The notes beneath the pieces were generated by a model, which made no database searches, was not told the origin of the DNA, and worked only from the letters and a program-made list of their open reading frames with translations. A stretch of 64,000 bases of DNA from an uncultured Planctomycetota bacterium. Its GTDB lineage: Bacteria; Planctomycetota; SKW154; DAOVDS01. The position numbers and the translations under genes were made by a program. Of the stretch, positions 1,093-33,589 are shown in pieces. The stretch covers positions 197,813-261,812 of the forward strand of contig CAZXNM010000003.1 of the NCBI GenBank assembly GCA_964641955.1. Reading direction: 5' to 3'. The first letter of the stretch is position 1, and the number at the start of each line of letters is the position of its first letter.

Positions 1093-1561
1093 GATACTGC
1101 TGTCCTTCTTCGGCCTGGGTTATCTCCCCAAGATGCCGGGAACGTGGGGCTCCGCCGGAGCGGCCCTTGTCTACCTGGCGCTGGCATCGGCGGGACTTCC
1201 CATGCTTCCTCTTTGTCTCGGGCTCGCGGCGGCCTTCACCGTGCTGACTATTGCGCTGGGAGGCTGCGCGGAGGAAGCCTACGGCAGGAAGGACCCGTCG
1301 CAGGTGGTCACGGACGAGGTCGCGGGCTACTTCGTCTCTGCGGCGTTTCTTGTTGATGTCAAACCTGTTACAGCCGCCGTGCTGGCCTTCTTCCTGTTCC
1401 GGTTCTTCGACATCGTGAAGCCGCCGCCCGTCAGGCAGATAGAGAAGCTGCCGCGCGGCTGGGGCCTGACTCTCGACGACGTGGCCGCAGGTGTTTTCGC
1501 CTGCGCAGCGGGGCACCTGGCGATTATATATATCATTCCAAGGCTGCCATTCGGCGCTTAG
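1073..1561 (+). CDS. pgpA: phosphatidylglycerophosphatase A
   Basis: Conserved PgpA N-terminus FFGLGYLPKMPGTWGS and C-terminal FRFFDIVKPPP...DDVAAG. GTG start overlaps the pgsA stop by 20 nt. Confidence 0.8.
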   Translation: MAQKASKILLSFFGLGYLPKMPGTWGSAGAALVYLALASAGLPMLPLCLGLAAAFTVLTIALGGCAEEAYGRKDPSQVVTDEVAGYFVSAAFLVDVKPVTAAVLAFFLFRFFDIVKPPPVRQIEKLPRGWGLTLDDVAAGVFACAAGHLAIIYIIPRLPFGA

Positions 1562-1599
1562 GTGCACGCGGCTGCCCGGGTCGTGCCCGAACAAAACGC

Positions 1600-1627
1600 T
1601 TGACAATTTTGCCCTCGATTGTAATAT
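1600..1627 (+). promoter_or_regulatory. candidate sigma70-type promoter (TTGACA-N16-TAATAT) upstream of the GGDEF gene
   Basis: TTGACA at 1600-1605, 16-nt spacer, TAATAT at 1622-1627, about 70 nt upstream of the TTG start at 1700. A GGAGG RBS precedes that start. Confidence 0.4.
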
Positions 1628-1699
1628 GTAGATTCAAGAATGCGCCGGCGTGCGTACGCGTTGCGTGCGCTGCGCGGTGACTTCTGGCCGGAGGCCTGA

Positions 1700-2908: not shown

Positions 2909-2932
2909 GAATTAGCAACCGGGAATAGTTAC

Positions 2933-3379
2933 ATGGCTTCAGTGTTTTACGAGGAACTGATAGTCTCGAACGAAACGGCCAACCTGGCCAGTGTCAGGGA
3001 GTTCGTGCAGGCCAATATCGAGCGGACTGCTCTCGCGCCGAGCGAGCACGTCAAGGTAATACTCGCGGTTGACGAGGCCGTCTCGAATATCATGAGGCAC
3101 GCCTACGAGGACTTCGCGAAAGGCACCAGGAGCATTGAGATAGTCTTCAAGGCTGACGAAGAGAAAATAATACTCACGCTCAAGGACAGCGGGAGGGAGT
3201 TCGACCCGACAGATGTCAATGAGCTGAATATCTCCGAGCACGTAAAGCTCGGTAAGAAGTACGGTCTCGGTCTCTTTCTCATGCGGAGGATTATGGACGA
3301 GGTCAAGTTCGTCTTCCGCTCGGGAATAGAGAATATGCTGACAATGGTTAAGTACATTAAGCCTCCCGAACCGAAGTAG
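2933..3379 (+). CDS. anti-sigma regulatory factor / serine-protein kinase (RsbW/SpoIIAB-like, HATPase_c)
   Basis: About 148 aa. Motifs DEAVSNIMRHAYE and GLGLFLMRRIMDEV are typical of GHKL-type anti-sigma factor kinases. Confidence 0.75.
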   Translation: MASVFYEELIVSNETANLASVREFVQANIERTALAPSEHVKVILAVDEAVSNIMRHAYEDFAKGTRSIEIVFKADEEKIILTLKDSGREFDPTDVNELNISEHVKLGKKYGLGLFLMRRIMDEVKFVFRSGIENMLTMVKYIKPPEPK

Positions 3380-4291: not shown

Positions 4292-6391
4292 TCATGCGAG
4301 CACGACGCGGGCATCGACCGCGCAGGTGCAGCCGCTGGCGCCCGAGACGAAGAACGGGTTCATCTCGAGCGATTGAATCTGCGGGAAATCGCCCGCGAGC
4401 TGCGACACGCGAAGAAGAGTGTCCTTTATCTTTTCCACGTCGGCTGGCTCCTTGCCCCTGTAGCCGGTCAGGAGCTTGTAGCCTTTTATCGATTTAACAA
4501 TGTCATCGGCGTCGAGGTCGGTGAGCGGGTACATCTTGAATGAGACATCGCGCAGCACTTCCACGTATATGCCGCCCAGGCCGAACATGATGAGCGGGCC
4601 GAAAGTCGGGTCGTACGTCATGCCGATTATGGTCTCGACTTCGCCTTCTATCATCTCCTGGATGAGTATGGCTTCGACCTCGTCCCTGCCGAAAGATTCG
4701 CGTATCCTGCGGTATTCGTTGAGCAGCCCCTGCTCATCCCGGATGTTGAGCGCGACGCCGCCGCGGTCGCTCTTGTGAGATATCTTGCCCGAGACGATCT
4801 TGAGAGCGAGGGGATAACCGTGCTTGCGGGCAAAGGCGGCTGCCGTTGCTTCATCCTCGACTGTCGCCGAGGCTGCTACATCTATTCCGTAAGCCGCCAG
4901 CACCTGCTGCGACTCGGCGATGGTCAGGAGCTTCCTGCCCTCGCCTCGCGTGGTCTCGAGGACGGCGGCGGCTGATTCCGTTTTGACCTTGAATTTTTTT
5001 ATCTTGCCGTGCGGGCGCCTGCGCCATTTCCGGTAACGCTCCAGTCCCTCGAGGGCGATGGCCGCGCTCTCGGGATAAGTGTACACTGGTATGTCGGACT
5101 CGCGCAGCAGCTTGAGCGCTCCCGTCTCGTCCTCCGCGCCCGTCATGAAGCACGCCAGGACGAGCTTGCCGGGATGGCTGTTTCTCGTATCGATGACCGA
5201 ACGGGCCACGGCTCTTGCATCGAGGAAGGCGGGCATGACGACGATGACCAGCGCACTGTCCACGTCGGGGTCCTTGAGTATGATGTCGAGGGCCTTCCCG
5301 AAATCGTCCGGACTGCTTGAGCCTGTCATGTCCACGGGATTGCCAACGGCCGCATCTTCGGACAGGAAGCTCGACAGCGACTTGAGCGTCTCCGGGCTGA
5401 AACGCGCCATTTCGAGGCCGCGCGTCGAGAGCGCATCCGTTGCGAGTATGCCCGGGCCGCCGCCGTTCGTGAGAATCGCCACTTTCGGACCGGCGGGCCG
5501 CGGCTGGCCGACGAAAGCCTTGGCCATGTCAAAGACTTCCTCTATCGTGTTCGCCCGAAGCACGCCGCACTGCTCGAAGAGCGCATCGACGGCGATGTCC
5601 ATGCCTGCCAGCGAGCCGGTATGACTGCTTGCCGCCCGGGCGCCGGCCACGGTCCTCCCGCTCTTGACGGCGATTATCGGCTTTACGCGGCTGAGTTCCC
5701 TGGCAATTCGGGAAAAATTGACCGGATTGCCGAAGCTTTCGAGGTACAGGAGCACGAGTTCCACGCTGGGGTCGTTCTTGAGATATTCCATCGTGTCGTT
5801 CGAGGTGACATCCGCCCTGTTGCCGAGGCTTATGAACTTGGAGAGGCCGAGATTCGTCTCAATCGAATAGTCGAGAATCGCCTCGCCCAGCGCTCCCGAT
5901 TGCGAGATGAACGCGGTCTTTCCGGTCAGGGGATAGGTTCTCGTGAAGCTGGCGTTCATCCTCACTTCGGGGTCCGTATTCACGACGCCCATGCAGTTAG
6001 GGCCCACCATTCTCATGCCTGACGAGCGCACTATGCGCGTAATCTCGGCTTCTATCCTCGCCCCTTCTTCGCCCGTCTCCTTGAATCCGGCTGTTATGAC
6101 GACAAGGCCTTTGACCTTTTTGCGGACGCACTGGTTTATCACTTCGGGCGCGATTCTCTTCGGAACCGCGATTATCGCCATCTCGACTTCGTCCGGGACA
6201 TCCTCAACGGTCGGGTAAGCTTTTATGGAATGAATAACATCTGCTTTTGGGTTTATGGGAAAGACTTTGCCGTTGAATTCCGCGGTAACCAGGTTATGCA
6301 CGATTTCATGGCCTATCTTGCCCGGCTTCTGGCTCGCGCCTATTACCGCGATTGACTTCGGCTTGAAAATACAGTCAAGAGAATCCGGCAT
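4292..6391 (-). CDS. acetyl-CoA synthetase (ADP-forming), fused alpha/beta subunits (NDP-forming acyl-CoA synthetase family)
   Basis: 699 aa. N-terminal CoA-binding fold KSIAVIGASQKPGKIGHEI, succinyl-CoA-synthetase-like ligase domain, and C-terminal ATP-grasp domain. Confidence 0.8.
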   Translation of the reverse strand: MPDSLDCIFKPKSIAVIGASQKPGKIGHEIVHNLVTAEFNGKVFPINPKADVIHSIKAYPTVEDVPDEVEMAIIAVPKRIAPEVINQCVRKKVKGLVVITAGFKETGEEGARIEAEITRIVRSSGMRMVGPNCMGVVNTDPEVRMNASFTRTYPLTGKTAFISQSGALGEAILDYSIETNLGLSKFISLGNRADVTSNDTMEYLKNDPSVELVLLYLESFGNPVNFSRIARELSRVKPIIAVKSGRTVAGARAASSHTGSLAGMDIAVDALFEQCGVLRANTIEEVFDMAKAFVGQPRPAGPKVAILTNGGGPGILATDALSTRGLEMARFSPETLKSLSSFLSEDAAVGNPVDMTGSSSPDDFGKALDIILKDPDVDSALVIVVMPAFLDARAVARSVIDTRNSHPGKLVLACFMTGAEDETGALKLLRESDIPVYTYPESAAIALEGLERYRKWRRRPHGKIKKFKVKTESAAAVLETTRGEGRKLLTIAESQQVLAAYGIDVAASATVEDEATAAAFARKHGYPLALKIVSGKISHKSDRGGVALNIRDEQGLLNEYRRIRESFGRDEVEAILIQEMIEGEVETIIGMTYDPTFGPLIMFGLGGIYVEVLRDVSFKMYPLTDLDADDIVKSIKGYKLLTGYRGKEPADVEKIKDTLLRVSQLAGDFPQIQSLEMNPFFVSGASGCTCAVDARVVLA

Positions 6392-6405
6392 TTTCGCCCC
6401 CGTAT

Positions 6406-7389
6406 CTACTTTAACCAGCCTGCGACATCCTTCGCGTGGTACGTCAGAATCATATCGGCGCCGGCACGCTTGAAACCGGTTAGAATTTCGAGCACGGTTC
6501 TTCGCTCATCGAGCCATCCTTTGGCAGCGGCCGCCTTCACCATGGCATATTCGCCGCTGACGCTATAGCACGCGACAGGTAGGTCGAATTCATCGCGCAC
6601 CAGGCTGATAATGTCCATGTATGCGAGCGCCGGCTTGACCATGACTATGTCGGCTCCCTCGGAGATGTCCAGCTCTACCTCACGCAGCGCCTCGCGCACG
6701 TTGGCCGGGTCCATCTGATAGGCGCTGCGGTCGCCGAATTGCGGCGGCGACTCTGCCGCGTCGCGGAAAGGGCCGTAGAACGCCGATGCGAACTTCGCCG
6801 AGTAGGCCATGATAACCGTGTTCTCGAACCCGGCCTTGTCGAGTGCATCTCTTATCGCGACGACCTGTCCGTCCATCATGGCCGAAGGCGCTACGACATG
6901 CGCCCCGGCCCGTGCCTGCGACAAGGCGGTCTTCGCCAGCAGCTTCAGGGTGGCGTCGTTATCGACCTCGAAATCGGCCCCGCGCTTTTTCACGACGCCG
7001 CAGTGGCCGTGGCTCGTGTACTCGCAGAGGCAGACATCCGTAATAACCAGAAGGTCCGGCACTTCCTTTCGTATGCGTTTTACCGCTTTCTGAACGATGC
7101 CGTCGGCTGCGTATGCGCCGGTTCCCATCCTGTCCTTCTTCGGTGGTATGCCGAAGAGAATCACTGCCGGGATTCCGGCAGCGAATAGCGAAGCAGCCTC
7201 TCTGGCCGCTTTATCCACGGACAACTGAAACTGGCCCGGCATGGAGGGGATGAGTTTTCGTACTTTCTTTCCTGGTCGCACGAACAGCGGCGCTATCAGG
7301 TCGTCGGTGCTCAGGCTCGTCTCTCTGACAAGCCTGCGTATAGCCTCGTTCCGCCTCAGCCGCCTCATTCTCGTTTCCGGGAAGTCCAT
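6406..7389 (-). CDS. hemB: porphobilinogen synthase (delta-aminolevulinic acid dehydratase)
   Basis: [16 protein letters not shown]...PLFV...SMPG N-terminus and active-site lysine context (VMVKPAL) of ALAD. 327 aa. Confidence 0.9.
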
Positions 7390-7410
7390 TTTCTCTCCTG
7401 TCTGTCGGTT

Positions 7411-8226
7411 TTATCCCTCGGACTCAACGTGCGCTGCAATCGCCCTGGCGAGTCCCGGCATTGTATGCTCGCGGGCTTCTATGTCAATGCGCAGGCCGAG
7501 CTTCCTCGCCACGCGCGAGGTTACCGGCCCGATAGATGCCAGCCTGGCTTTGCCGAGAAACCTTCTCAACTGCTGCGGTGCAGGCAGTCTTCCGTTTCCC
7601 GCGATTGCGGCGAGGCTGCGGACCGTCGAGCCGCTTGCCACCGTGACGAAATCAACCTTCAGGACCCGTTCTCGCAGCTTTTTCGCACCGGTACTGACAG
7701 GCACAGTTTCGTATAGGCTTCTGACAGTTACTTTCGCGCCCGCCGCACGCAGCCGCCGCGGCAGTGTCTCTCTCGCGCCCTTCGCCCGCAGAAGCAGCAC
7801 GGTCTTTCCGCCTACGCCACCTGCTTTCATCATGTCGGCCACGGATTCGGCGATGTACTTTTCCGGCACCGCCTTCACGCGGACGCGGCGCTTCCTGAGC
7901 GCGTCGGCAGTCCCGGGGCCGATGGCGACCACGCTGCTGCCGCGCAGGGCCTTCCCGCCTGCTTCGGCTCCTGCACGGCGGAAGAAATCGTCAACACCAT
8001 TGCGGCTCGTGAAAATGACGTAATCAAACTTTAGCCTGCCGGCGCAGAAGCGCTCGATAAACCTGTCCAACCGGATTGACCGGACGGGCTGAATCTCAAT
8101 CAGCGGAAACTCGACCGGCGTTGCGCCGAGCCTGCGAAGTATACGCGAGAACTCGCCCGCCTGATGTCCGGCGCGGGTGACGAGGATTTTCTTTCCCGCC
8201 AGCGGTTTTCGCGCGCTTCTAAGCAT
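7411..8226 (-). CDS. hemD: uroporphyrinogen-III synthase
   Basis: Sits between hemC and hemB. KKILVTRAGHQAGEF...PLIEI and duplicated half-domains typical of HemD. ATG at 8226 chosen over the upstream ORF start to avoid overlap with hemC. Confidence 0.7.
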   Translation of the reverse strand: MLRSARKPLAGKKILVTRAGHQAGEFSRILRRLGATPVEFPLIEIQPVRSIRLDRFIERFCAGRLKFDYVIFTSRNGVDDFFRRAGAEAGGKALRGSSVVAIGPGTADALRKRRVRVKAVPEKYIAESVADMMKAGGVGGKTVLLLRAKGARETLPRRLRAAGAKVTVRSLYETVPVSTGAKKLRERVLKVDFVTVASGSTVRSLAAIAGNGRLPAPQQLRRFLGKARLASIGPVTSRVARKLGLRIDIEAREHTMPGLARAIAAHVESEG

Positions 8227-8227
8227 A

Positions 8228-9166
8228 TCAGCTGCTCCCGCCGCGGACCTGCTGGAGTATCTCTTTCGCTCCCGCACCCATAAGCTCCTGAGCCACTTTC
8301 CATGTGACATCGCGCCAGTCGCTCGAATCGCCGTCCGCCTGCGCTTTCAGGACCCGGCTGCCGTCGGGCGAGACGACGCACGCGCTCAGGGCGACCTTCC
8401 CGTCGCTTACACGAGCCATGACGCCGATAGGCGCGCGGCACCCGCCTCCAAGAAGGTCCAGGAGTTGCCTCTCTGCCAGCGCCTCGGCTCTCGTCGGTTC
8501 GTGCTCGATGGAGCGAACTATATCGATAATATCAGAGTCTCTCACGCGTGCCTCGATAGCCACGATTCCCTGCGCTGCGGCCGGCTGCATTACGTCCGGC
8601 TCCAGCATCTCGGTAATAACATCTTCTTTGCCAAGTCTCCTGAGACCGGCGGCTGCCAGGACGATTGCGTCGAGGTCCATGGATTCGAGCTTCTGAAGCC
8701 TGGTCGGCACGTTGCCGCGCATGGAGATAATGTCGAAATCGCCGCGGAATGCCCGTAGCTGCGCTGCACGGCGGATGCTGCCAGTTCCGATGCGGGCGCC
8801 CTGGGGCAGGTCGGCGAGCTTCGCTCCGCTGCGCGAGACAAGCGCATCGCGCGGGTCCTCGCGCTTGAGGACACCGGCGACGGCGAGCCCTTCCGGTTGC
8901 GACGTCGGCAGGTCCTTGAGGCTGTGGACGGCGATATCCAGCGTCCGGTTGAGAAGATTGCGCTCAATCTCCTTGGTAAAAACGCCCGTGCCGAGCCGGG
9001 GTATCGCTTCTTCGGCGAAACGGTCTCCCGATGTCGTTACCGTCCTGATTGTGAAATCATGGCTGGGCCAGACGGCGGCGAGCTGCTCGACGGCCCATTT
9101 TGCCTGCGCCAGGGCGAGGTCGCTTCCCCGCGTCCCAACCAGAATCCTGCGGGAACCTTTCTGCAA
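8228..9166 (-). CDS. hemC: hydroxymethylbilane synthase (porphobilinogen deaminase)
   Basis: RILVGTRGSDLALAQA...TSGD and the dipyrromethane-cofactor Cys region (LGGGCRAPIG). 312 aa. Confidence 0.9.
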   Translation of the reverse strand: MQKGSRRILVGTRGSDLALAQAKWAVEQLAAVWPSHDFTIRTVTTSGDRFAEEAIPRLGTGVFTKEIERNLLNRTLDIAVHSLKDLPTSQPEGLAVAGVLKREDPRDALVSRSGAKLADLPQGARIGTGSIRRAAQLRAFRGDFDIISMRGNVPTRLQKLESMDLDAIVLAAAGLRRLGKEDVITEMLEPDVMQPAAAQGIVAIEARVRDSDIIDIVRSIEHEPTRAEALAERQLLDLLGGGCRAPIGVMARVSDGKVALSACVVSPDGSRVLKAQADGDSSDWRDVTWKVAQELMGAGAKEILQQVRGGSS

Positions 9167-20230: not shown

Positions 20231-20944
20231 ATGCGTAAAACTTGGATTCTGCTGGTTGTAGGCATTTTTGCAGCGGGGTTTGTCTGGATGCAGTGCGGGT
20301 TCTCGCAGGACGAGCCGCAAAATGAGCCCAAGGGCAAGACTGTCAAGCTTCCCAAGCCCAAAGAGAAGGGCGAGATGTCGGTCGAGGAAGCCATCAAGAA
20401 GCGCCGTTGCGTGCGAAGCTACAAGGACAAGGCGATGAGCCTCGAGCAGCTCTCGCAAATCCTCTGGGCTGCAAACGGCGTTACAGGCAAGAAGAGCTAC
20501 TACAGGGCCGCGCCGTCGGCCGGCGGGCTGCACCCGCTCGATTTCTACGCTGTGGTGGGCAAGGGCACTGTGACCGGCCTCGATGAAGGGGTATGGCACT
20601 ATAACCCTGTCAAGCATACCCTGAGACGCATTGTAGAGGGCGACAAGCGGGAAGCGCTCAAGAACGCTGCGCTGGGCCAGAAGCAGATAGGCACGGCCCG
20701 GGTCGATATCATGGTTACAATCGAGTTCGAGAGGACCACAAAGAAGTACGGCGAGCGCGGCAAGCAGCGCTACGCATATATGGACTGCGGGTTCGCGTGC
20801 GAGAACGTGTTCCTGCAGGTGCAGTCGCTCGGGCTGTCCATGTGCGTCGTGGGCGCGTTTCACGATGACAAGGTCGCCGCGGCCCTGAGCCTGCCCGAGA
20901 AGCACGAACCAGCCCTGCTGCTCACAATCGGGTATCCGGAATAG
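20231..20944 (+). CDS. secreted nitroreductase-family protein (SagB-type dehydrogenase-like)
   Basis: Signal/anchor peptide, then RRCVRSY...LSQILWAANGVTG and GGLHPLDFY..., typical of the nitroreductase/SagB fold. A TATAAT box lies at 20180-20185. Confidence 0.65.
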   Translation: MRKTWILLVVGIFAAGFVWMQCGFSQDEPQNEPKGKTVKLPKPKEKGEMSVEEAIKKRRCVRSYKDKAMSLEQLSQILWAANGVTGKKSYYRAAPSAGGLHPLDFYAVVGKGTVTGLDEGVWHYNPVKHTLRRIVEGDKREALKNAALGQKQIGTARVDIMVTIEFERTTKKYGERGKQRYAYMDCGFACENVFLQVQSLGLSMCVVGAFHDDKVAAALSLPEKHEPALLLTIGYPE

Positions 20945-24894: not shown

Positions 24895-25077
24895 AGCACC
24901 GAATATAGCCCGCCGCGTTCACATGTCAAGACATGCAAACGCAATACTGCCAAGAAAGTTGAAACACCCGGGCCGGAGTGTTGTTCGGGGTATTCCGGAT
25001 TTGGTTTTGTTTTGACAGAAAGGCGCCCTTGCGGTTAAACTCGCCCTGTCCTTCATCCGGCGCGTAAGAGGTTTTTC

Positions 25078-26637
25078 GTGAGGTTTCTCAAGGCACCCGT
25101 CGTTTTCGCACTTGTTATCCTGTCCCTGTTTGCGGGCTGCACGGGGTCAACGCCAAACTACAAGTTCAAGGTAGAAAAGAACATCTCCCACGTCTATATA
25201 AACAACGATGGGTCCATAGACATCGAATATCACATAACCTTCGAGAACCTGGGCGACCCGATAGACGTGGTTGACATAGGCCTGCCCCACGACGGCTACC
25301 GGCTCGACACGGCGCGGGCGGATGTTAATTCGTTCCCCCTGACGGACATAGACCGTTCGAGCTACATAGCGGTCGGCGTGGAGGTGCAGCTCGGTGAGCA
25401 CGCCATACCGAGGAGTCAGAGCGGCACGCTGAACTTCAGAATCAACAATCCGAAGATGGTCTTTCCCGACACCGAGGATGCGACGTATGCCAGCGTTCAG
25501 TTCTCGCCGACGTGGTTCTATCCCCCGTTCGTCGTCGGGACCACCCGCGTCGAGGTCCACGTCCACTTTCCCCCGGGCGTGAGCGGGAGCGAGACGAAGT
25601 ACCACGCCGTTGCGCCCACGTCCGATACCTATGCCGGCGACAGGCTGATTTTCACGTGGGTGAAAGAAGCCGCCCGCCAGGAAAAAATGATGGTGGGCGT
25701 GTCGTTCCCGAGGAAGTACGTTGACAAGGTATTCGACCCGTCCGAAGTGACCTTTGTCGAATCCATGGAGCCCACGGAGCCTTTCAACTGGGGTGCGCTT
25801 GCAGCCTGGCTGCCTTACATAGTGATTGCGTTCATAGTGATTCTGGGAGCAGTGGGAGGCGCTTTCGCGAACCGCACCAAACGGATGCACTACCTGCCGC
25901 CCGAGACCAGGATAGAAGGGCTCGGACCGTGTAGGAGCCTCGACCCGATAGAGGCGGCCATCGTGCTTGAACTGCCGCTTTCGAGAATCGTGGCGCTGGC
26001 CATGATGCAGCTCATACAGAAGCAGTGCATCGAGGTTAAGCAGGTTCATCCTCTCAGGGTCAATATCCTTGACGAGAACAAGCCGGGGCTTAAGGCCTAC
26101 GAGGAGAGCATATTGAAGGCGCTTGACCCGGCAAAGTACGATGATGAGAAGACAAGGGAAAGGCGACTTCACAACGCCGTGACGAAACTGATAGAGAGCG
26201 TGAGGGACAAGCTTAAAAAAGGCTTTTCCCGGAAAGCGACCGCGGATTTCTACCGCGGGAAGATTGAGCACATGTGGGGCAGAATCGAGCGCGACCCGCA
26301 GCTCGAGCACCTTGCATGGATTGCGCTGAACGATGACTACGTTAAGGAAATTGAGGAAAGTCCGGCCAAGCAGGAGAAGCTCGAACCTTTCTGGCGCGAT
26401 GGATATTACGACTATTTCCCCTCGCGGTACAGGCGGCGCAACATGTACTACATCTTCGATGATTTCGAGGAAGAGATGGTGCCGGACAATACAGGATTCA
26501 CGCACGGCGTCAGCAAGGTCACCAATCCCACGGCGTGGATACAGTCTTCCGGCTGGTCCTCGGGCGGCGGAGGCGGAGGGTCCTGTGCATGTGCGTGCGC
26601 CGGCTGTGCCTGTGCCTGCGCCGGGGGGGGGAGATAG
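25078..26637 (+). CDS. lipoprotein/membrane protein with DUF2207-like architecture and a Gly6-Ser-(Cys-Ala)n C-terminal tail
   Basis: Lipobox LFAGC, extracytoplasmic N-domain, one TM (WLPYIVIAFIVILGAVGGAF), a roughly 250-aa cytoplasmic part ending ...SGWSSGGGGGGSCACACAGCACACAGGGR. GTG start. A TTGACA-N17-TTAAAC candidate promoter lies at 25012-25040. Confidence 0.6.
   Translation: MRFLKAPVVFALVILSLFAGCTGSTPNYKFKVEKNISHVYINNDGSIDIEYHITFENLGDPIDVVDIGLPHDGYRLDTARADVNSFPLTDIDRSSYIAVGVEVQLGEHAIPRSQSGTLNFRINNPKMVFPDTEDATYASVQFSPTWFYPPFVVGTTRVEVHVHFPPGVSGSETKYHAVAPTSDTYAGDRLIFTWVKEAARQEKMMVGVSFPRKYVDKVFDPSEVTFVESMEPTEPFNWGALAAWLPYIVIAFIVILGAVGGAFANRTKRMHYLPPETRIEGLGPCRSLDPIEAAIVLELPLSRIVALAMMQLIQKQCIEVKQVHPLRVNILDENKPGLKAYEESILKALDPAKYDDEKTRERRLHNAVTKLIESVRDKLKKGFSRKATADFYRGKIEHMWGRIERDPQLEHLAWIALNDDYVKEIEESPAKQEKLEPFWRDGYYDYFPSRYRRRNMYYIFDDFEEEMVPDNTGFTHGVSKVTNPTAWIQSSGWSSGGGGGGSCACACAGCACACAGGGR
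26584..26631 (+). repeat. hexanucleotide (TGYGCN)n coding microsatellite followed by a G9 homopolymer at the 3' end of the upstream gene
   Basis: tgtgca tgtgcg tgcgcc ggc tgtgcc tgtgcc tgcgcc at 26584-26622 encodes CACACAGCACACA. Nine consecutive G at 26623-26631, then aga tag. Confidence 0.9.
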
Positions 26638-26651
26638 GCACCGGAGGTAAA

Positions 26652-28001
26652 ATGTCCGTATTCGGTTTCCTGAAGAAAGTCAAACCTCTTGAGAAGGGAA
26701 TATACTCCGCCCGCATCGACGAGCCGGAGGGCAACTACAGGCTTCACCTGCGAATTGAAGAAGACGGAAGCGGGGTCCTGGTGATAAACGCTTCCAGGAT
26801 TCTCCACATGAACCAGACTGCGACGGAATACGCGAAGATGATTATCGACGGTCTCGATGTTGACGAGGCCGCTAAAAAAATGCGTTCGAGATACAGGGTC
26901 AGGTTGGACATCGCCAGAAGGGATTATCAGAAAATCAATGATACCATAAACGCACTCTCGCGCACGGACCTCGTCTGCCCCGTAAGCTATCTCGACGTCG
27001 AGATGATTGAGCCCGACTCCGTCGTCCCCTCCGCACCATATCGCATGGACATCGCGCTTACTTACGAATGCCAGAACAAGTGCGCCCACTGCTACGTCGA
27101 GGAGAAGGAAAGGGGCGAGCCGCTGAGCTTCGAGCAGTGGAAGCAGGCGCTGGACAGGCTGTGGGCGGCGGGGATTCCTCACGTATGCTTCACGGGCGGG
27201 GAGCCGACGCTGCACGAGAACCTGGAAGGGCTGATTGAATACGCCGAGGACATCGGCATCGTGACGGGGCTTATAACGAACGGCAGGAAGCTGGCGGACG
27301 AGGCGTACACGCGCAGGCTGATTGACGCCGGGCTGGACCACGTGCAGATAACACTCGAGAGCCACGATGAGAAGGTGCATGACGAGATGGTCGGCAGTCC
27401 AGGCGCGTGGAAGGAGACTGTCGAAGGCGTGAAGAATGCCGTCAAGCTGCCGCTCTACACGATTACCAATACCACGCTTCTCAGAAACAACGTCGGTGAA
27501 ATCGAGAAGACCGTGGAATTCCTCGCTTCTCTCAACGTCGATGCATTCGCCTGCAACGGCCTTATTTACAGCGGAAAGGGCAGGGAGCACGAAGGCGGAA
27601 TCAGCGAGGAGGAGTTGCCCGGCATCCTCGAACGAGTCAAGGATGCGGCGTCGCTGAACGGGCTGAGATTCATCTGGTACACTCCAACGCGCTACTGCAC
27701 GTTCAACCCGGTGGACGCGGGCCTCGGCATTAAGCAGTGCAGCGCCGCAAAGCTGAACATGTGCATAGAGCCGGACGGCACGGTGCTGCCCTGCCAGTCA
27801 TATTTCGAGTCCGCGGGCAATATCCTGGCGGATTCGTTCGACTCGATATGGAACAGCGACACGAGCAGGACCCTGCGCAACCGCGAGTGGATTGACGATG
27901 AGTGCAGGCAGTGCGAGATGCTGAAGCTCTGCGGGGGCGGGTGCCCCCTGCGCCGGGAAGGCGAATCGTTCATCTGCCGCGATTCCAAGGCCTCCTCGTA
28001 G
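26652..28001 (+). CDS. radical SAM / SPASM-domain peptide-modifying enzyme with N-terminal PqqD-like RiPP recognition element (RRE)
   Basis: CxxxCxxC (CQNKCAHC) about 125 aa from the N-terminus. C-terminal SPASM pattern C(x2)C(x5)C(x3)C (CRQCEMLKLCGGGC). The N-terminal 110 aa (DGSGVLVINASRILHMNQTATEYAKMIIDGLDVDEAAKKM) matches the PqqD/RRE pattern. GGAGG RBS 4 nt before the ATG. Confidence 0.85.
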   Translation: MSVFGFLKKVKPLEKGIYSARIDEPEGNYRLHLRIEEDGSGVLVINASRILHMNQTATEYAKMIIDGLDVDEAAKKMRSRYRVRLDIARRDYQKINDTINALSRTDLVCPVSYLDVEMIEPDSVVPSAPYRMDIALTYECQNKCAHCYVEEKERGEPLSFEQWKQALDRLWAAGIPHVCFTGGEPTLHENLEGLIEYAEDIGIVTGLITNGRKLADEAYTRRLIDAGLDHVQITLESHDEKVHDEMVGSPGAWKETVEGVKNAVKLPLYTITNTTLLRNNVGEIEKTVEFLASLNVDAFACNGLIYSGKGREHEGGISEEELPGILERVKDAASLNGLRFIWYTPTRYCTFNPVDAGLGIKQCSAAKLNMCIEPDGTVLPCQSYFESAGNILADSFDSIWNSDTSRTLRNREWIDDECRQCEMLKLCGGGCPLRREGESFICRDSKASS

Positions 28002-28013
28002 GAAACGTATGGA

Positions 28014-28766
28014 TTGAACACAGGGCAGGCATCCAAACACCTTGAAGAGCTGGAAGCCTACTACGCCGCGCAGGCGAGGTGGACGAAGGCAGCGCGCAGC
28101 TACCTTTACAGGCGCGCGGGCGTGACAAGGGCCCGAAGGATACTCGAGGTCGGGTGCGGTACGGGCGAGATAACGAGCGAACTTGCCCGCAGGGCGAAGG
28201 CGAGCATTACGGCGGTCGATATCGACGGCGCGATGGCGCAGTACACCCGGGAACGCGTGCTTTCGGCAGATGTGATAGCGGCAGATGCGGCGAGCCTCGA
28301 TTTCCCTGACGGCTCGTTTGACGTGGCGGTCTGCCACTTTACCCTGATGTGGTGCAGTGAACCTGCGGCAGTTCTCGTGGAGATGGCGAGGGTTGTGAGG
28401 AAATCGGGGTGCGTAATCGCGCTTTCCGAGCCGGATTACGGGGGTGCGCTGGAGTACCCGGATTCCATGGGATACCTGCGCCTTGTGGCGGAAGGCCTGC
28501 GCCGGCGCGGCGCCGACCCGGAAATCGGGAGGAAACTGTACAACATATTTTCGCAGGCTTCTCTTGAGACGGAAACGGGCCTTGCGAGCACGGTGTGGAC
28601 CGGAGAGTCCTCGAAGGCCGACTTCGAAGCCTGCCGCTGGCTCGTACGGGATGTGGTCGATGAGGAGGAGTTCATCAGAATCAGGAATGCGCACTGTGAT
28701 GCGCTGCCGGTGGAAGGATGTATATGCTTCCTGCCGGTATTCTGGGCCTTCGGGCTCAAGAAGTAG
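28014..28766 (+). CDS. class I SAM-dependent methyltransferase
   Basis: Motif I ILEVGCGTGEIT, motif II/post-I DIDGAMAQ, FDVAVCHFTLMW. TTG start is uncertain. Confidence 0.75.
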   Translation: MNTGQASKHLEELEAYYAAQARWTKAARSYLYRRAGVTRARRILEVGCGTGEITSELARRAKASITAVDIDGAMAQYTRERVLSADVIAADAASLDFPDGSFDVAVCHFTLMWCSEPAAVLVEMARVVRKSGCVIALSEPDYGGALEYPDSMGYLRLVAEGLRRRGADPEIGRKLYNIFSQASLETETGLASTVWTGESSKADFEACRWLVRDVVDEEEFIRIRNAHCDALPVEGCICFLPVFWAFGLKK

Positions 28767-28784
28767 TTTGACAAGGAGGAAGAA

Positions 28785-29783
28785 ATGCCTGAGCTGCGTC
28801 AGAACATGGCCACGAAGGAGTGGGTCATAATCGCGACCGAGAGGGCCAAGAGACCGGACCAGTTCAAGTCCGAGTCGAAATCCGACGAGGAGGTTCCCGA
28901 GTACGACCCGAAGTGCCCGTTCTGTCCCGGCAAGGAGGACAAGACGCCTCCCGAGACGTATCGCATCGATAAGGACGGGAAGTGGCTGGTGCGTTCCTTT
29001 CCCAACAAGTTCGCCGCGCTGCTGCCCGAGGGTGATACCGACAATGCGTTCACCGGCGTGATGCGCAAGATGAACGGCGTGGGCTTCCACGAGGTGATTG
29101 CCGAAACGCCGCTGCACAACCAGCACATGTCGAGCCTGGATATCGACCATTTCGCCAGCGTAATCAAGGTGTATCACCAGCGCTTCAATCACATCGCCGC
29201 CGACCCCCGAATCGAGCAGGTGATAATCTTCAAGAACCACGGTGCCGGCGCGGGCACCTCGCTTGTTCACCCGCATTCGCAGCTTATTGCCCTGCCCGTC
29301 GTGCCCGCTCATATCAGGCATCGCGTCGAGGAGGCGATGCGCTACTTCGACGACCACGGCGAGTGCGTCATGTGCGAGATGATGGAAATGGAGCTGAAAG
29401 AGAAGACGCGCGTGGTCCTTGAGACGGAGCATTTCGTGAGCTTCGTTCCTTACGCAAGCTTTTCTCCTTTTCACGTATGGCTCGTTCCGAAGGAGCATCT
29501 CTCCTGCTTCGGCCACATATCCGAGGATGTGATGCCGGATATGGCGCGCAATCTCAGGAGCGTCCTGCAGAGGCTGTACGTCGGGCTGAACAACCCGGAT
29601 TTCAATCTGGTGGTCAATTCCGCGCCTCTTGACGGCGGCACGCGATACTACCACTGGTATCTTTCCGTGGTTCCCCGCGTAACCAGGACGGCCGGCTTCG
29701 AGCTCGGCTCGGGGATGTTCATCAACACCTCGCTTCCGGAGGCGGGTGCGCAGTACCTGAGGGAACAGGAAGTGGAGGACTGA
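28785..29783 (+). CDS. galT: galactose-1-phosphate uridylyltransferase-family (GalT-type HIT) nucleotidyltransferase
   Basis: Zn site KCPFCPG plus the HxHxQ active site (HPHSQLIAL), about 330 aa. AGGAGGA RBS. Substrate specificity not inferable. Confidence 0.75.
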   Translation: MPELRQNMATKEWVIIATERAKRPDQFKSESKSDEEVPEYDPKCPFCPGKEDKTPPETYRIDKDGKWLVRSFPNKFAALLPEGDTDNAFTGVMRKMNGVGFHEVIAETPLHNQHMSSLDIDHFASVIKVYHQRFNHIAADPRIEQVIIFKNHGAGAGTSLVHPHSQLIALPVVPAHIRHRVEEAMRYFDDHGECVMCEMMEMELKEKTRVVLETEHFVSFVPYASFSPFHVWLVPKEHLSCFGHISEDVMPDMARNLRSVLQRLYVGLNNPDFNLVVNSAPLDGGTRYYHWYLSVVPRVTRTAGFELGSGMFINTSLPEAGAQYLREQEVED

Positions 29784-29790
29784 AAAGGGG

Positions 29791-30813
29791 ATGAAGAACC
29801 GCATCCTCAGGAGGGCTCAGCTATTCGGGCGCGCCCTGGCATGCGCCGCAAGGTCGCGTCTCCTGACGCACCGCCCGTTCACCCTGTCGCACAGGATAAC
29901 CGGGCGGTGCAACGCCCGATGCGAGACTTGCCTGTGGAGGGGCAGGTTCGAGGAGGAAGCCGGTACCGACCGGATTGTCGAGGCTTACGAGCGCGCACGT
30001 GATGCGGGTTTCATATCGACGACATTCTGGGGCGGCGAGCCGCTGCTGCGCGCCGATATGCCGGAAATCGCGCGCCGCGTCCGCGGCCTTGGCCTGACGG
30101 TGGGGCTCATCACGAACGGCTATTATCTTCCCGAGAAGGCGCGGGAGCTTTCTGGCGCCCTCGACTATATCATTGTATCGCTGGATGTGCCGAATCCCGG
30201 GCACGACAGGCTGAGAGGGGTAGAGGGCATCTTCGACAGGGCGGTCGAGGGGATGCGCGTTCTTAGGAGCTTCGACCCGACGGTCAAGATTTTCATCAAC
30301 TCGGTCGTCAGCAGGTTGTCCTATCCGGCGGTGCCCGGGATGGCCGACTTCGCCCGCAGACTCGGCCTTTCCGTGACGTTCGAGTCCACGAACACGGGCG
30401 TGACTCTCGACGGGACGCGCAATGTGCAGTTGAGGCTGCCGCCCGACATTGAGCGGGAGGCTTTCGACAGGATACTGGCGATGAAGATGCGCGGCCTGCC
30501 CGTCAACAACTCGTCCACGTATCTCCGGATGTTCGCGACCGGGCGCACGCGCTACGCCTGCCAGAATCCGAAAGTGGCCCTTGGCGTCGGACCGGACGGC
30601 ACAATCACCGCCTGTCTCGACAGGCCGGTTTCCCTGGGCAACTTCTACAGCGACAGCCTGGTGGAGATTTTGGACAGTTCGATTCTCATGGATATGCAGG
30701 CGAGAGCGGAGAACTGCTGGCTCTGCGTGGACAGCGGGACAATCGAAACCTCGCTCTTCTGGCAGTTCAGGCGGGAGGTGGTCTTGAGCACGCTGAGGTT
30801 ATTCTTGAAATGA
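29791..30813 (+). CDS. radical SAM protein (MoaA/NifB/PqqE-like, with C-terminal twitch/SPASM-like Cys cluster)
   Basis: ITGRCNARCETC (CxxxCxxC), GGEPLL glycine-rich SAM motif, C-terminal C...C...CWLC. Confidence 0.8.
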   Translation: MKNRILRRAQLFGRALACAARSRLLTHRPFTLSHRITGRCNARCETCLWRGRFEEEAGTDRIVEAYERARDAGFISTTFWGGEPLLRADMPEIARRVRGLGLTVGLITNGYYLPEKARELSGALDYIIVSLDVPNPGHDRLRGVEGIFDRAVEGMRVLRSFDPTVKIFINSVVSRLSYPAVPGMADFARRLGLSVTFESTNTGVTLDGTRNVQLRLPPDIEREAFDRILAMKMRGLPVNNSSTYLRMFATGRTRYACQNPKVALGVGPDGTITACLDRPVSLGNFYSDSLVEILDSSILMDMQARAENCWLCVDSGTIETSLFWQFRREVVLSTLRLFLK

Positions 30814-31631
30814 GCGGTGCGGACAGCATGCTGGATTTTGCGATTGATGTTTCGAAACGGGCCGGAAAGAAGCTGCTCGGCCGGTTCGAAAAGCTGGGCC
30901 GGTCCGATATCTCGTTCAAGGGCAAGCGCAATCTCGTGACCGTTGCGGACAACGAATCGGAAGAGTTCATCGTCGCCGAGATACGCCGTTCGTTCCCGGA
31001 GCATACGATTCTGGCCGAGGAGCGGACGAAGGACAGGGAAGAAACCGGGTACAGGTGGATAATCGACCCGCTCGACGGCACGATTAACTACGCGCACGGC
31101 CACCCGTTCTTCTGCGTCGCCATGGCGCTTTTGAGGGAAGGCGAGGTCGTGCTCGGGGTCGTGCATGCGCCGCTGCTTGGCGAGACGTATCATGCCGAGT
31201 TGGGAAAAGGGGCTTTCCTCGGCGGCAGGAAGCTCTCCGTAAGCGATTCGGACGAGCTGATAAACTCGCTGCTGGCGACCGGGTTCGCTTACGTTCGCGA
31301 AGAGACGATGTCGAACAACCTCGCCAATTTCAGCCGCCTGTCGCTGAAGGCGCGGGGAGTGAGGCGCTACGGTTCGGCCGCAATCGACCTCGCCTACGTG
31401 GCGGCCGGGCGGCTGGATGGCTTCTGGGAGTTGTACCTGGCGCCTTGGGACGTGGCGGCCGGCAGCCTTCTTGTTACCGAGGCGGGAGGAAAAGTTACTG
31501 ATATCGCCGGCGGAGATGATTACATTTACGGCCAGAACATCGTTGCATCAAACGGGTGCATTCATGATATTATAAGAGAGAATATTGAACCGTTCGAGCG
31601 AAGTGAGCGCACCGACAGTCAGGGCGACTGA
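30810..31631 (+). CDS. inositol monophosphatase-family (SuhB/CysQ/FBPase-like) phosphatase
   Basis: IDPLDGTINYAHG and WDVAAGSLLVTEAGG motifs. ATGA start/stop overlap with the upstream radical SAM gene (translational coupling). Confidence 0.85.
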   Translation: MSGADSMLDFAIDVSKRAGKKLLGRFEKLGRSDISFKGKRNLVTVADNESEEFIVAEIRRSFPEHTILAEERTKDREETGYRWIIDPLDGTINYAHGHPFFCVAMALLREGEVVLGVVHAPLLGETYHAELGKGAFLGGRKLSVSDSDELINSLLATGFAYVREETMSNNLANFSRLSLKARGVRRYGSAAIDLAYVAAGRLDGFWELYLAPWDVAAGSLLVTEAGGKVTDIAGGDDYIYGQNIVASNGCIHDIIRENIEPFERSERTDSQGD

Positions 31632-31652
31632 GTGCATTAAGGAGGAAGCGAC

Positions 31653-32195
31653 TTGTATCTCAAACTTACGGCGGCGGCGTTTCTCTTGCTGGCGGCATGT
31701 GTCGGCTGCGTATCACCGCCAACGGGCGCCGCGCCCGACCCGGGACGGACAGGTCTTCACCAGAAGGGAATCGCGATTGCGGCCAAGGATGCCTTGAAGG
31801 ATATCAACCTCAAGACGCTGGCGGGCATGAAGGTTTGGGTCGATGTGGCCTGCCTCTCGGGGCTTCAGTCGGGCGGCGACCGAAGCGAGGATGCGCGCTT
31901 CCTGGAAAACCTGATTGTTGAGATGCTCGTCGAAAGCAGGATAAGAATCGTCGAGAAGCGCGAGGCCGAGGCCGTGCTGCGCGGCGTCTGCGAGGTGATG
32001 GGCACCGATTCGGTAATCCGCGTCTTCCCGCATCCGCTGCTGCCGCTTATGTACTACGCCAAGCACAAGGCGCACGTCAAGCTGCACCTGTACGCATACG
32101 AGCCGAAGGATTCCCAGCCGATAACCGTCGCCGACTGCGAGGGGTCGTACTCGTGGTCCGAATGGTCGATATTCGGCCTGGGGCCTTACCGCTGA
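31653..32195 (+). CDS. lipoprotein, function unknown
   Basis: Lipobox LAACVGC. GGAGGA RBS before the TTG start. Last gene of the plus-strand operon. Confidence 0.5.
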   Translation: MYLKLTAAAFLLLAACVGCVSPPTGAAPDPGRTGLHQKGIAIAAKDALKDINLKTLAGMKVWVDVACLSGLQSGGDRSEDARFLENLIVEMLVESRIRIVEKREAEAVLRGVCEVMGTDSVIRVFPHPLLPLMYYAKHKAHVKLHLYAYEPKDSQPITVADCEGSYSWSEWSIFGLGPYR

Positions 32196-32722
32196 GCCTT
32201 GAGCCGGCGCATGTACGCCTGCCGCACCGAGGCGAAGAACTCGTGATAATCCTCCAGGCGGTAATCCGGAAACGTCCAGGGCAGGATTCTGAAGGAGCCG
32301 TTTGCATACTGCAGGGTGATTTCGCCGTACACACCCTTCCCGAGGTATATCCTGTGCGAGAAGTTCTTGCAGGATGCGAGAATCAGCTTCGACGGCAGCA
32401 GCAGCCCGGGGTCAACGTTGACCGGCCTCTTAACTCCGTGCATGCCGGAAAATTCCTCTTCGAGCCTGTTGGTTGAAAGTTTGGCCCTGACAAGCGATTC
32501 CTGCTCTACAAGATTTTCGAAAGCGTAAAATTTGCGCCAGAGGCCCGTTCCCATTTCAGCCTCGTAGTATTCGGTGCTGTCGAAGGCCATTGTCTCGCTT
32601 TCGAGGTCCGTCTTTCCGAAAAGTTTTTCGAGCTTGTCTTTCAATTCGGGGAGAATCTCCTGCGAGGCTGCGAGCACTCCCGCGAATAATTTTGCCTTGT
32701 CGGGTTTGCTGGGTTGTGCCAT
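32186..32722 (-). CDS. DUF4416 domain-containing protein
   Basis: 178 aa. MAFDSTEYYEAEMG motif recalled as typical of DUF4416. No further functional clue. Confidence 0.5.
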   Translation of the reverse strand: MAQPSKPDKAKLFAGVLAASQEILPELKDKLEKLFGKTDLESETMAFDSTEYYEAEMGTGLWRKFYAFENLVEQESLVRAKLSTNRLEEEFSGMHGVKRPVNVDPGLLLPSKLILASCKNFSHRIYLGKGVYGEITLQYANGSFRILPWTFPDYRLEDYHEFFASVRQAYMRRLKAQR

Positions 32723-32725
32723 TTC

Positions 32726-33589
32726 TCAAACCTCGCCGATGCGCAGGGAATGGAGTCCCGATATTACGGCGAACGTCTTTTCGTCTTTATGTGCCCGTCC
32801 CCACGAGCCATCCCTGCCGGCGGTCCGGGCCAGCCTGTCAAGCGCGAACTCGAACTCCTTTAGCGCATCGAGACCTCCGATAACGCCGAGCGTTTCCAGC
32901 GTGAAGAAGAACGGGAATCCTTTCCAGTTGCCGGATGCCGTTCTGCGGCTTCTGAGCGTTTTCAGGCCTTCGTTCGCGTATGGCCGGTACTGCGGAAAAC
33001 AGTTCGCGACGCGCCAGAAGGCGCCCGTGCAGTTCCAGCAGCAGTAAATGCCCCGCCGCGAGAACTTCACCATGTTTCTGAAGGCTTCCAGCATGTCGCC
33101 GACGCGAGGGTCATCCTTCGCGCCTGCATCGAGGAGGACTCCAAGTGCAAGCTCGCCGTAAATGTGGCAGAACGAGGCTCGTGAGGGGAGTCTCTCGCCG
33201 GTAGGCAGTATGAAGGCATTCTTGAGGTCGCTCTCGGTGGGTGCGGGAAACACGCCGCGATACGAATGGGGCTGCCCCTGCCGCCACAGGAGCCATTCCG
33301 CGGCATCGGCGACGTGCGGGTCGGAGACGTCATAACCGAGGCGCACAAGCAGGTCGAGCCGGCGCACCGTCTCTACGAGCGAGTCGTTCCACGAGCCATT
33401 GCTGCGCTGGCCGGCGGTCAGGGCCTTGTATGCGGCACGCGTGTCGGCCTCGTCGAACAGCGCAAGGGCGGCCAATGAAAGAGGAGTGGACCGGCTGCGG
33501 AAGTAGTCGATAGCATCTTTTCTCTCTGTCACGTCCTCTCCGTCGGGGCGGGCTGTTTCGGCCCGCACGCCTTGACGCACACGCCGCAT
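32726..33589 (-). CDS. hypothetical protein with QW-type (prenyltransferase/squalene-cyclase-like alpha-alpha toroid) repeats
   Basis: Recurrent Q...NGSW / SGNWKG / DGSWGR motifs. Low-confidence family call. Confidence 0.35.
   Translation of the reverse strand: MRRVRQGVRAETARPDGEDVTERKDAIDYFRSRSTPLSLAALALFDEADTRAAYKALTAGQRSNGSWNDSLVETVRRLDLLVRLGYDVSDPHVADAAEWLLWRQGQPHSYRGVFPAPTESDLKNAFILPTGERLPSRASFCHIYGELALGVLLDAGAKDDPRVGDMLEAFRNMVKFSRRGIYCCWNCTGAFWRVANCFPQYRPYANEGLKTLRSRRTASGNWKGFPFFFTLETLGVIGGLDALKEFEFALDRLARTAGRDGSWGRAHKDEKTFAVISGLHSLRIGEV

Follow-up and report, generated by a model that had tools for sequence, protein, structure and literature searches.

Can a radical S-adenosylmethionine (SAM) enzyme of the type that matures small peptides have the end of a membrane protein as its substrate? 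This question is raised by a locus in a 64,000-nt stretch of DNA from an uncultured Planctomycetota bacterium (contig CAZXNM010000003.1; hereafter the window, to whose positions coordinates refer unless another locus is named), in which seven plus-strand open reading frames (ORFs), g1 to g7, span positions 25078-32195. The first encodes a membrane protein with a Cys-rich C-terminus and the second a radical-SAM/SPASM enzyme; sequence and Pfam searches confirmed this juxtaposition, on which an earlier reading of the DNA (the original prediction) had based a novel modification system. To our knowledge, nearly all radical-SAM/SPASM maturases that have a recognition domain make small secreted peptides or cofactors, and here such machinery is tied to the C-terminal end of a large membrane protein. 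Comparison with related loci indicated that g1, g2 and g3 (25078-28766) are a conserved cassette, so that three of the seven flagged genes belong to the system. Taken as a whole, the cassette looks like an undescribed protein-modification system that is real and widespread, in which g2 probably acts on the g1 tail.

The evidence begins at the very end of g1. Its terminal residues, ...SCACACAGCACACAGGGR*, stand directly before the stop codon (the DNA reads to ...GGGGGGSCACACAGCACACAGGGR, then TAG), and the 17-mer CACACAGCACACAGGGR recurs unchanged in hundreds of bacteria that are only distantly related; archaea have a close variant of it. Each of the first three g2-homologue neighbourhoods held a protein of 524-550 aa without a Pfam match whose translated end was again CACACAGCACACAGGGR. 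A whole-protein search returned 120 g1 homologues of 30-90% overall identity, all labelled 'hypothetical' and lacking any Pfam match; 116 of them share the identical 17-mer end and the remaining four are truncated records. One homologue comes from a cultured carrier, Thermanaerothrix sp. 4228-RoL. Such agreement among proteins of otherwise ~30-40% identity cannot be due to chance. When 115 g1 orthologues were aligned (mean column identity 38%), all 17 tail positions proved invariant. The underlying DNA is saturated with synonymous changes: 164 distinct versions of the tail use all synonymous codons at each position and all three stop codons, and selection must therefore act on the peptide rather than on the DNA. 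Unchanged at 17 residues among proteins from many bacterial phyla whose identity is otherwise ~30%, the g1 tail is among the most strictly conserved short motifs.

Variants were surveyed among 143 of the best-scoring 50%-cluster representatives of the g1 profile search, all additional to the sequences already compared. A (CA)n-GGGR end is present in 114 of these (65 canonical and 49 variant), and the other 29 end without a Cys tail, most of them being shorter and apparently fragments; on this reading the full-length representatives of the family all retain the (CA)n-GGGR end. Among the variants are CACACAGCACACACAGGGR and GGGCACACACACAGGGR, the shortest being HCACACAGGGR and SCACAGGGR. Bathyarchaeia and Heimdallarchaeota carry close variants of the (Cys-Ala)n-GGGR design, and the archaeal form can be written CVCACAxCACACACVSCACACA[GH]GG[AV][RG]. 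Across the sequences compared, a C-terminal (CA)n-GGGR is the feature that the tail variants have in common.

Tail and enzyme were found together from both search directions. A genome scan (one genome per species) seeded with an alignment of g2 homologues alone gave matches in at least 592 species, and the best 80 loci were examined. All of these come from metagenome-assembled genomes, and they cover at least ten phyla of Bacteria (Anaerolineae/Chloroflexia, Coatesbacteria, Zixibacteria, Hydrogenedentes, Cloacimonadota, Nitrospirales, Acidobacteriota, Actinomycetota and a delta-proteobacterium) and Archaea (Bathyarchaeia and Heimdallarchaeota). The g2 homologues belong to anaerobes of sediments and sludge, the best-matching loci being almost all from uncultured ones. 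A g1 homologue with a (CA)n-GGGR tail is encoded in ~64 of these 80 loci, and its place is nearly always directly 5' of g2 on the same strand; an ORF with a (Cys-Ala)n tail occurs in 70 of 87 loci if the window and duplicate places are included in the count. Three loci have the reversed order, with the radical-SAM gene preceding g1. Many of the loci without g1 are contig ends, and no convincing small Cys-rich precursor ORF was found in loci lacking an adjacent g1, in agreement with the earlier remark that the operon has no separate small precursor. In the opposite direction, a metagenome scan seeded only with a degenerate DNA pattern for the tail returned at least 120 loci. A g2 homologue is present in 105 of the 112 that have at least 300 nt of downstream sequence, 91 of them having it within 200 nt downstream and 14 elsewhere in the locus; among the 120 loci listed, eight have less than 300 nt downstream, and five have 300-1500 nt and no g2. 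Gene order, domain content, the invariance of the tail and this two-way co-occurrence are observations on the loci themselves. The idea that the Cys-Ala tail accompanies g2 homologues and is kept in g1 orthologues was thus borne out from both sides, and the two-way co-occurrence and the invariance of the tail give g2 a co-encoded substrate candidate with a conserved core.

The predicted g2 product has the domains expected of such an enzyme. Pfam recognised a radical-SAM domain (PF04055 Radical_SAM, 94 bits) and a SPASM domain (PF13186, 41.5 bits against a cutoff of 21.5), and the AlphaFold2 (AF2) model (predicted local distance difference test score (pLDDT) 84.9, predicted template modelling score (pTM) 0.86) shows a recognition element of the kind found with ribosomally synthesised and post-translationally modified peptides (RiPP recognition element, RRE), then the radical-SAM barrel, then SPASM. 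DSSP assigned strands (E) and helices (H) to the N-terminal domain in the order E16-24, E27-35, E41-45, E49-53, H55-65, H70-81 and H85-104, which is the beta3-alpha3 RRE type, and R30, H32, L33, R34, N46, A47 and E59 are invariant in 109 sequences. The PqqD model PF05402 matches 13 of 15 g2-family members (best E 7.6e-8), the window protein alone staying below threshold; with the AF2 topology, this upheld the original description of the first 110 residues as PqqD/RRE-like. In the same 109 sequences the SPASM cysteines C363, C381, C418, C421, C427 and C431 are invariant and C442 is present in at least 90%, seven in all and sufficient for two auxiliary Fe-S clusters. Among solved proteins, SkfB (6.6e-29) and PqqE (1.1e-26) come closest by sequence profile, followed by BlsE, SuiB and CteB. 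The nearest folds found by Foldseek are SkfB and then SuiB and CteB, all three matched over the whole length, the latter two across 450-470 columns with the recognition domain included. The RRE, radical-SAM and SPASM maturase architecture of the original prediction is thus supported.

None of the named NCBIfam equivalogs, NirJ/Ahb among them, reaches its cutoff for g2. The scores against the respective cutoffs were 126.9/381 for PqqE (the best), 101/400 for GeoRSP, 88.8/400 for ACGX (TIGR04340), 88.7/265 for MftC, 81.7/300 for SkfB, 76/850 for AlbA and 68/350 for SbtM (TIGR04082), and QhpD is not among the top NCBIfam matches listed. Assignment as an anaerobic sulfatase-maturating enzyme (anSME) was considered and rejected: the match is distant (E 7e-8) and confined to the SPASM region, g2 has an RRE, and the tail lacks the anSME target motif. 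From its sequence and model, g2 is built like an RRE-dependent peptide maturase and stands outside all named families, including the non-peptide radical-SAM families in which it might have fallen. The original prediction had named beforehand four findings that would speak against the tail as substrate, namely g2 homologues that never co-occur with Cys-repeat tails, an N-terminal region that fails RRE models, placement of g2 in a known non-peptide family, and g1 orthologues without the tail. All four were looked into and none refuted the idea.

If the tail is a substrate, it should be within reach of the enzyme, and the model of g1 (pLDDT 83.9) agrees with this. The protein begins with a signal/anchor helix at residues 5-19 and continues through a beta-sandwich ectodomain to a single transmembrane (TM) helix (Table 1), near the end of which Y272 is invariant and R268 and P274 are nearly so in the orthologue alignment. 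Because a basic stretch follows this helix, the positive-inside rule suggests an N-out/C-in orientation with the tail in the cytoplasm, where it would be accessible to a radical-SAM enzyme. Residues 290-482 were modelled as a cytoplasmic winged-helix-like and helical domain and residues 486-519 as unstructured (pLDDT ~33). Where these two regions adjoin, at residues 474-484, lies a leader-like motif in which T482 and P484 are invariant and F474 and N483 are kept in at least 90% of the 115 aligned orthologues; its archaeal counterpart reads PGxDFANNIV...NVQxFANRLxP. We consider this motif a candidate RRE recognition sequence, and the arrangement of this motif, a Ser/Gly linker and then the invariant core resembles a leader and core peptide that have become part of a protein. 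The first gene had been called a lipoprotein or membrane protein. The membrane protein stands, and the lipoprotein is a detail of one clade: the lipobox LFAG|C is confined to the clade of the window protein, and most orthologues begin with a plain signal peptide that ends in ..A-QDY.

Neither g1 nor the system as a whole is covered by a Pfam or NCBIfam model. A profile search of 1.84 billion representatives delimited a discrete family with 489 members at E<=1e-30 and 1283 at E<=1e-3, the homologues being 514-640 aa long. Two models match below threshold, PF20990 (DUF2207_C; 19.9 against 33, E 6.5e-4) and TIGR04222 (35.2 against 43, E 9.7e-9), so that g1 falls short of the curated cutoffs for membership in either family. 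DUF2207/TIGR04222 proteins resemble g1 in having an ectodomain, a TM helix, a cytoplasmic domain and a low-complexity Gly-rich C-terminus, with weak similarity in the cytoplasmic region, but g1 scores below their cutoffs and forms a discrete family of its own with ~500-1300 representatives. DUF2207 is described as being of unknown function (PMC10457818), and no link between DUF2207 and radical-SAM enzymes was found in the literature searched. Foldseek searches of the Protein Data Bank matched the g1 ectodomain to ribophorin I/Ost1 (8b6l_O and 8pn9_E; E ~5e-9) and to the N-domain of M1 aminopeptidases. The best match, 8b6l_O, is a loose whole-length one to eukaryotic ribophorin I/Ost1 (an oligosaccharyltransferase subunit; luminal domain), with 506 columns aligned at a root-mean-square deviation of 22 A. 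Foldseek was set aside as a route to the function of g1, having yielded a ribophorin I/Ost1-like fold without a functional lead.

The neighbourhoods of the pair revealed further partners. Orthologues of g3 occur in 34 of 59 loci from the g2-seeded scan and 20 of 31 from the tail-seeded scan (about 60%), counting loci in which the sequence continues for 3 kb or more beyond g2, and in 43 loci they are full-length (median alignment 241 aa, 37% identity, 140 bits); by the BLAST criterion no methyltransferase was found in Bathyarchaeia loci. Directly 5' of g1, most loci encode a two-TM-helix protein of ~120 aa that carries a Zn-ribbon (CxxC...CP[YF]C) in its C-terminal part and ends ...Y[QE]hxEEPKW (for example L046 1978-2349, L038 8010-8378 and L161 4465-4824). 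It is present in 49 of 52 g2-seeded and 45 of 45 tail-seeded loci with enough upstream DNA, in Bacteria as well as Bathyarchaeia, and by this measure is the most constant partner after g1 and g2. Neither hmmsearch nor tblastn found it anywhere in the 64-kb window, and it is absent from L005 too; the usual fourth member of the system is thus missing from this genome region. In Anaerolineaceae a pseudo-radical-SAM gene sits between g2 and the methyltransferase (L063 11359-12525, L079 7683-8837, L023 5215-6534 and L024 11987-13207). Its product is a g2 paralogue, 33-41% identical, that has kept the RRE and lost CX3CX2C and the C-terminal part of SPASM, as expected of a substrate-binding partner. 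The conserved set, as read from these neighbourhoods, is [small TM Zn-ribbon protein]-g1-g2-(pseudo-radical-SAM paralogue)-methyltransferase. In L161, tandem g1 paralogues (4934-6613 and 6742-8457) with seven and six Cys in their Cys-Ala tails precede a single radical-SAM gene, a pseudo-radical-SAM gene and a methyltransferase.

No conserved peptidase, flavoenzyme or exporter/transporter was found among the neighbours clustered from 84 loci. This bears on the possibility that the tail is a sacrificial scaffold, on which g2, together with g3, would assemble a small cofactor or metallophore that is then cut off and released. Pyrroloquinoline quinone is released from PqqA and mycofactocin from MftA in this manner. 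By sequence, g2 has PqqE and MftC among its nearest relatives; both enzymes are established to work on the C-terminal end of their precursors or close to it, just as the site here is the extreme C-terminus. A release pathway is nonetheless quite improbable, given that none of the three kinds of accessory gene is conserved with the pair and that a 'precursor' of 520-600 aa has conserved ecto- and cytoplasmic domains, which argues that the protein is itself the functional product.

For a modification that is retained, we infer the following scheme of substrate, recognition, chemistry, methyl acceptor and physiological role. The N-terminal PqqD-type domain of g2 would hold the g1 segment F-T-x-G-V-T-x-V-T-N-P just ahead of the tail and would then feed the Cys-Ala tail into the radical-SAM/SPASM active site, where the cysteines would be modified post-translationally. 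The most likely chemistry would be the formation of intramolecular thioether crosslinks of the sactionine type, from Cys-S to the C-alpha of Ala or Gly; alternatively, each X-Cys unit might be oxidised to a thiooxazole, as by SbtM, or alternate residues might be epimerised. The methyltransferase g3 would then add one or more methyl groups. The result would be a rigid structure made from the protein itself, with metal or redox activity perhaps, which faces the cytoplasm and stays on g1.

SPASM enzymes are known to act on Cys by thioether formation (in sactipeptides and ranthipeptides and by QhpD) and by formylglycine formation (anSME). A further SPASM enzyme, SbtM, oxidises Gly-Cys to a thio(seleno)oxazole (PMC9204691). 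Each Cys of the g1 tail has Ala or Gly before it, only Ala and Gly are on offer as acceptor residues, and the sequence does not contain the anSME motif C-x-[PA]-x-R. The possible chemistries are not distinguishable by sequence; thiooxazoles strung along the tail, or sactionine bridges to the C-alpha of Ala or Gly, would be the leading candidates, because the tail has no anSME motif and only Ala and Gly as partners. Should g2 act on the tail, we would give thioether formation close to an even chance, regard thiooxazole formation or some other Cys oxidation as possible if on the unlikely side, and think epimerisation or another change rather unlikely. The original suggestion of thioether or C-C crosslinks on a Cys-rich tail gained support for the pairing of enzyme and substrate, from co-occurrence and architecture, and its chemistry stays conjectural.

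Several points weigh against the tail as the substrate of g2. The evidence is comparative throughout, and co-occurrence does not prove a relation of enzyme and substrate. The N-domain of g2 in the window itself falls short of PF05402 at E<0.01. Five loci (L013, L021, L022, L034 and L056) have no g1 despite ~10 kb of upstream flank, and two (L127 and L193) have no g2 despite more than 1.5 kb downstream, the sole such cases among the 120 tail-seeded loci listed. The pair has no conserved protease or exporter beside it, the RRE-dependent maturases that we know of act on short exported peptides and not on a membrane protein of 520 aa, and a Cys-rich tail could hold a metal or Fe-S cluster without any modification. 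As a separate observation on L127 (g1 at 1484-3325) and L193 (9145-10974), g1 is followed there by a signal-peptide protein of ~208 aa with CxxC pairs and then by opposite-strand genes.

The last of these points can be extended to a different account of the pair, in which the tail is no substrate and its alternating Cys bind a metal ion or Fe-S cluster directly, while g2, tethered to g1 through its PqqD-like domain, acts on a membrane lipid or small molecule with g3 as a companion. CxCxC runs make good metal ligands, the radical-SAM core of g2 also resembles enzymes with non-peptide substrates (BlsE, MoaA and, for lipids, GDGT-MAS), g1 itself lies in the membrane, and the hosts are sediment and sludge anaerobes. 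PqqD/RRE domains bind peptides, however, and the whole-length structural matches of g2 are peptide maturases. The invariant Ala/Gly positions and the terminal GGGR exceed what metal binding needs, and the tail stands at the end of a flexible linker in the manner of a core peptide. Neighbour clustering also showed no lipid-synthesis genes conserved near the pair. We therefore judge this account to be distinctly unlikely, and modification of the tail by g2 remains the reading that we consider probable.

How would such a system compare with those already described? The RRE-bearing maturases of sactipeptides and ranthipeptides (SkfB, AlbA, CteB/SCIFF and PapB) are alike in joining RRE, radical-SAM and SPASM/twitch domains and in having a Cys-rich target encoded next to the enzyme gene. 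Their substrates, however, are leader-core peptides of ~40-60 aa that are cleaved and exported, whereas here the core is the C-terminus of a membrane protein of 520-600 aa. A short precursor, a cleavable leader and a protease or exporter, by which sactipeptides and ranthipeptides are recognised as RiPPs, are not features of the g1/g2 system. Compared from general knowledge, the nearest conceptual parallel is QhpD and QhpC, where the protein likewise keeps the crosslinks made by the radical-SAM enzyme. QhpD is a radical-SAM/SPASM enzyme that introduces several Cys thioether crosslinks into QhpC, the gamma subunit of quinohemoprotein amine dehydrogenase. In QhpC, a small soluble subunit of the periplasm, the crosslinks run to Asp/Glu; a (Cys-Ala)n repeat is lacking, and no membrane protein takes part. 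The ACGX system (TIGR04340) pairs a radical-SAM/SPASM enzyme with a predicted target of low-complexity Ala-Cys-Gly-X repeats. That system is itself uncharacterised, and its target is a small repeat peptide, whereas here (Cys-Ala)n-GGGR ends a large membrane protein. The likeness to SbtM lies in the Ala or Gly that precedes Cys throughout the g1 tail, which makes thiooxazole chemistry formally possible; the targets of SbtM, short peptides with selenocysteine or Cys in Geobacter and Desulfobacteria (PMC9204691), are unlike g1. The openly searchable literature yielded no account of the system, and on radical SAM in Bathyarchaeia/Anaerolineae it yielded only a study of lipid producers.

Table 1 Features of the g1-g7 block in the 64,000-nt window
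Feature	Position	Strand	Details
g1, whole gene	25078-26637	+	519 aa; TAG stop 26635-26637; signal peptide/lipobox, beta-sandwich ectodomain, one TM helix, cytoplasmic helical domain, disordered Cys-Ala tail (predicted)
g1 extracytoplasmic beta-sandwich	25165-25710	+	residues 30-211; AF2 pLDDT >95
g1 TM helix	25789-25890	+	residues 238-271; AF2 helix; followed by conserved basic R/K-x-Y-L-P-P stretch
g1 leader-like motif	26497-26529	+	residues 474-484; F-T-x-G-V-[ST]-x-V-T-N-P; ~20 residues ahead of Cys block
g1 C-terminal tail	26584-26634	+	residues 503-519; CACACAGCACACAGGGR; proposed core/modification site
Shine-Dalgarno sequence for g2	26643-26647	+	GGAGG, read from the sequence; within the 14-nt g1-g2 spacer, 4 nt ahead of ATG 26652
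g2, whole gene	26652-28001	+	449 aa counted from ATG; RRE (PqqD-like) + radical-SAM + SPASM; proposed maturase for the g1 tail
g2 N-terminal RRE/PqqD-like domain	26697-26963	+	residues ~16-104; four strands, three helices (AF2)
g2 CX3CX2C motif	27069-27092	+	C140/C144/C147; invariant in 109 sequences
g2 SPASM domain	27738-27977	+	seven conserved Cys; PF13186
g3	28014-28766	+	250 aa; class-I SAM methyltransferase; Methyltransf_11/25 (Pfam)
g4	28785-29783	+	GalT-family (HIT) nucleotidyltransferase; TIGR00209 145 bits vs 102.1; PF01087 + PF02744
g5	29791-30813	+	second radical-SAM/SPASM enzyme, no RRE; PTO1314 and GeoRSP models far below cutoff
g6	30810-31631	+	inositol-monophosphatase-family phosphatase; PF00459 241.5 bits vs 27; ATGA overlap with g5
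g7	31653-32195	+	180 aa; predicted secreted protein/lipoprotein; no Pfam/NCBIfam match

The ORF coordinates agree with the earlier description of seven co-directional genes with short gaps and an ATGA overlap, the intergenic distances from g1 to g7 being 14, 12, 18, 7, -4 and 21 nt. A scan for promoters and terminators gave nothing above chance level; a promoter-like site lies at 25012-25041, upstream of g1, and no terminator-like site was found on the plus strand inside the block. This tight spacing and co-orientation, with no terminator-like site in between, might suggest that all seven genes form one pathway, in which g4 to g6 decorate the modified tail with, for example, a sugar or inositol phosphate. 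A GalT-like gene also lies near the pair in L005 and L061. These two and the window are the only such cases among ~87 g2-seeded loci, however, and there are none among the 120 tail-seeded loci listed; g5, g6 and g7, like the SagB-like nitroreductase described below, were seen with the pair nowhere but in the window (none among ~200 related loci). Two homologues of g5 were found in unrelated contexts with no conserved neighbourhood between them, and g4 passes the ordinary GalT equivalog cutoff. The seven-gene system of the original prediction was not sustained: a single pathway of this extent is very improbable and is largely refuted by the neighbourhood comparison. Because g4 to g7 are not conserved with the pair across related loci, they are, by this comparison, co-directional neighbours and not members of the conserved system.

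By sequence, g4 belongs to the GalT family, and its translation has HPHSQ, i.e. the H-x-H-x-Q active-site motif. The g5 family is separate and moderately widespread (449 matches at E<=1e-10); some members carry PF11946 (DUF3463), and one has the source annotation 'DUF3463 domain-containing protein'. Identity of g5 with the second radical-SAM-like gene beside g2 in Anaerolineaceae was rejected, as the latter is the g2 paralogue without the SAM-cluster Cys. For g6, the SuhB and HisN equivalogs score below cutoff. A defence system was also considered and rejected, since PADLOC gave only generic similarity to viperin/radical-SAM and methyltransferase cores (g2, g3 and g5).

The heterodimeric ABC-exporter pair upstream and the nitroreductase-fold protein nearby, to which the original prediction had drawn attention, are both present; neither is conserved with the system, the nitroreductase occurring in 0 of 200 loci. 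The latter (20231-20944, plus strand, 237 aa, with an N-terminal signal/anchor) contains a SagB-family dehydrogenase domain (TIGR03605, 126 bits against a cutoff of 78) and, not being conserved near the pair in other loci, is probably unrelated to it. On the opposite strand 3' of the block are a DUF4416 protein (32186-32722; 196 bits) and a 287-aa protein without a Pfam or NCBIfam match (32726-33589).

The seven-gene call is thus corrected to three genes of a system that extends to at least 592 species (one genome per species) and, at E<=1e-30, to 489 g1 cluster representatives. Work on such a system could bring to light Cys chemistry not known before, in a setting of Ala and Gly only, as well as a function for the DUF2207-like class. 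A bolder reading, which we advance tentatively and consider doubtful, is that it is an ancient cross-domain module, found in Asgard archaea, Bathyarchaeia and at least ten bacterial phyla, in which a radical-SAM enzyme turns the cytoplasmic tail of a ribophorin-I-like protein into a new protein-derived cofactor. If so, this cofactor might be, for example, a series of sactionine bridges arranged as a ladder, or thiooxazoles in a string, and serve to bind metal or carry electrons, and g2 would be the first RRE-dependent maturase with a large integral membrane protein as its physiological substrate and with the modification retained. The membrane protein would thereby gain a redox, metal-sensing or signalling function of a kind not seen before.

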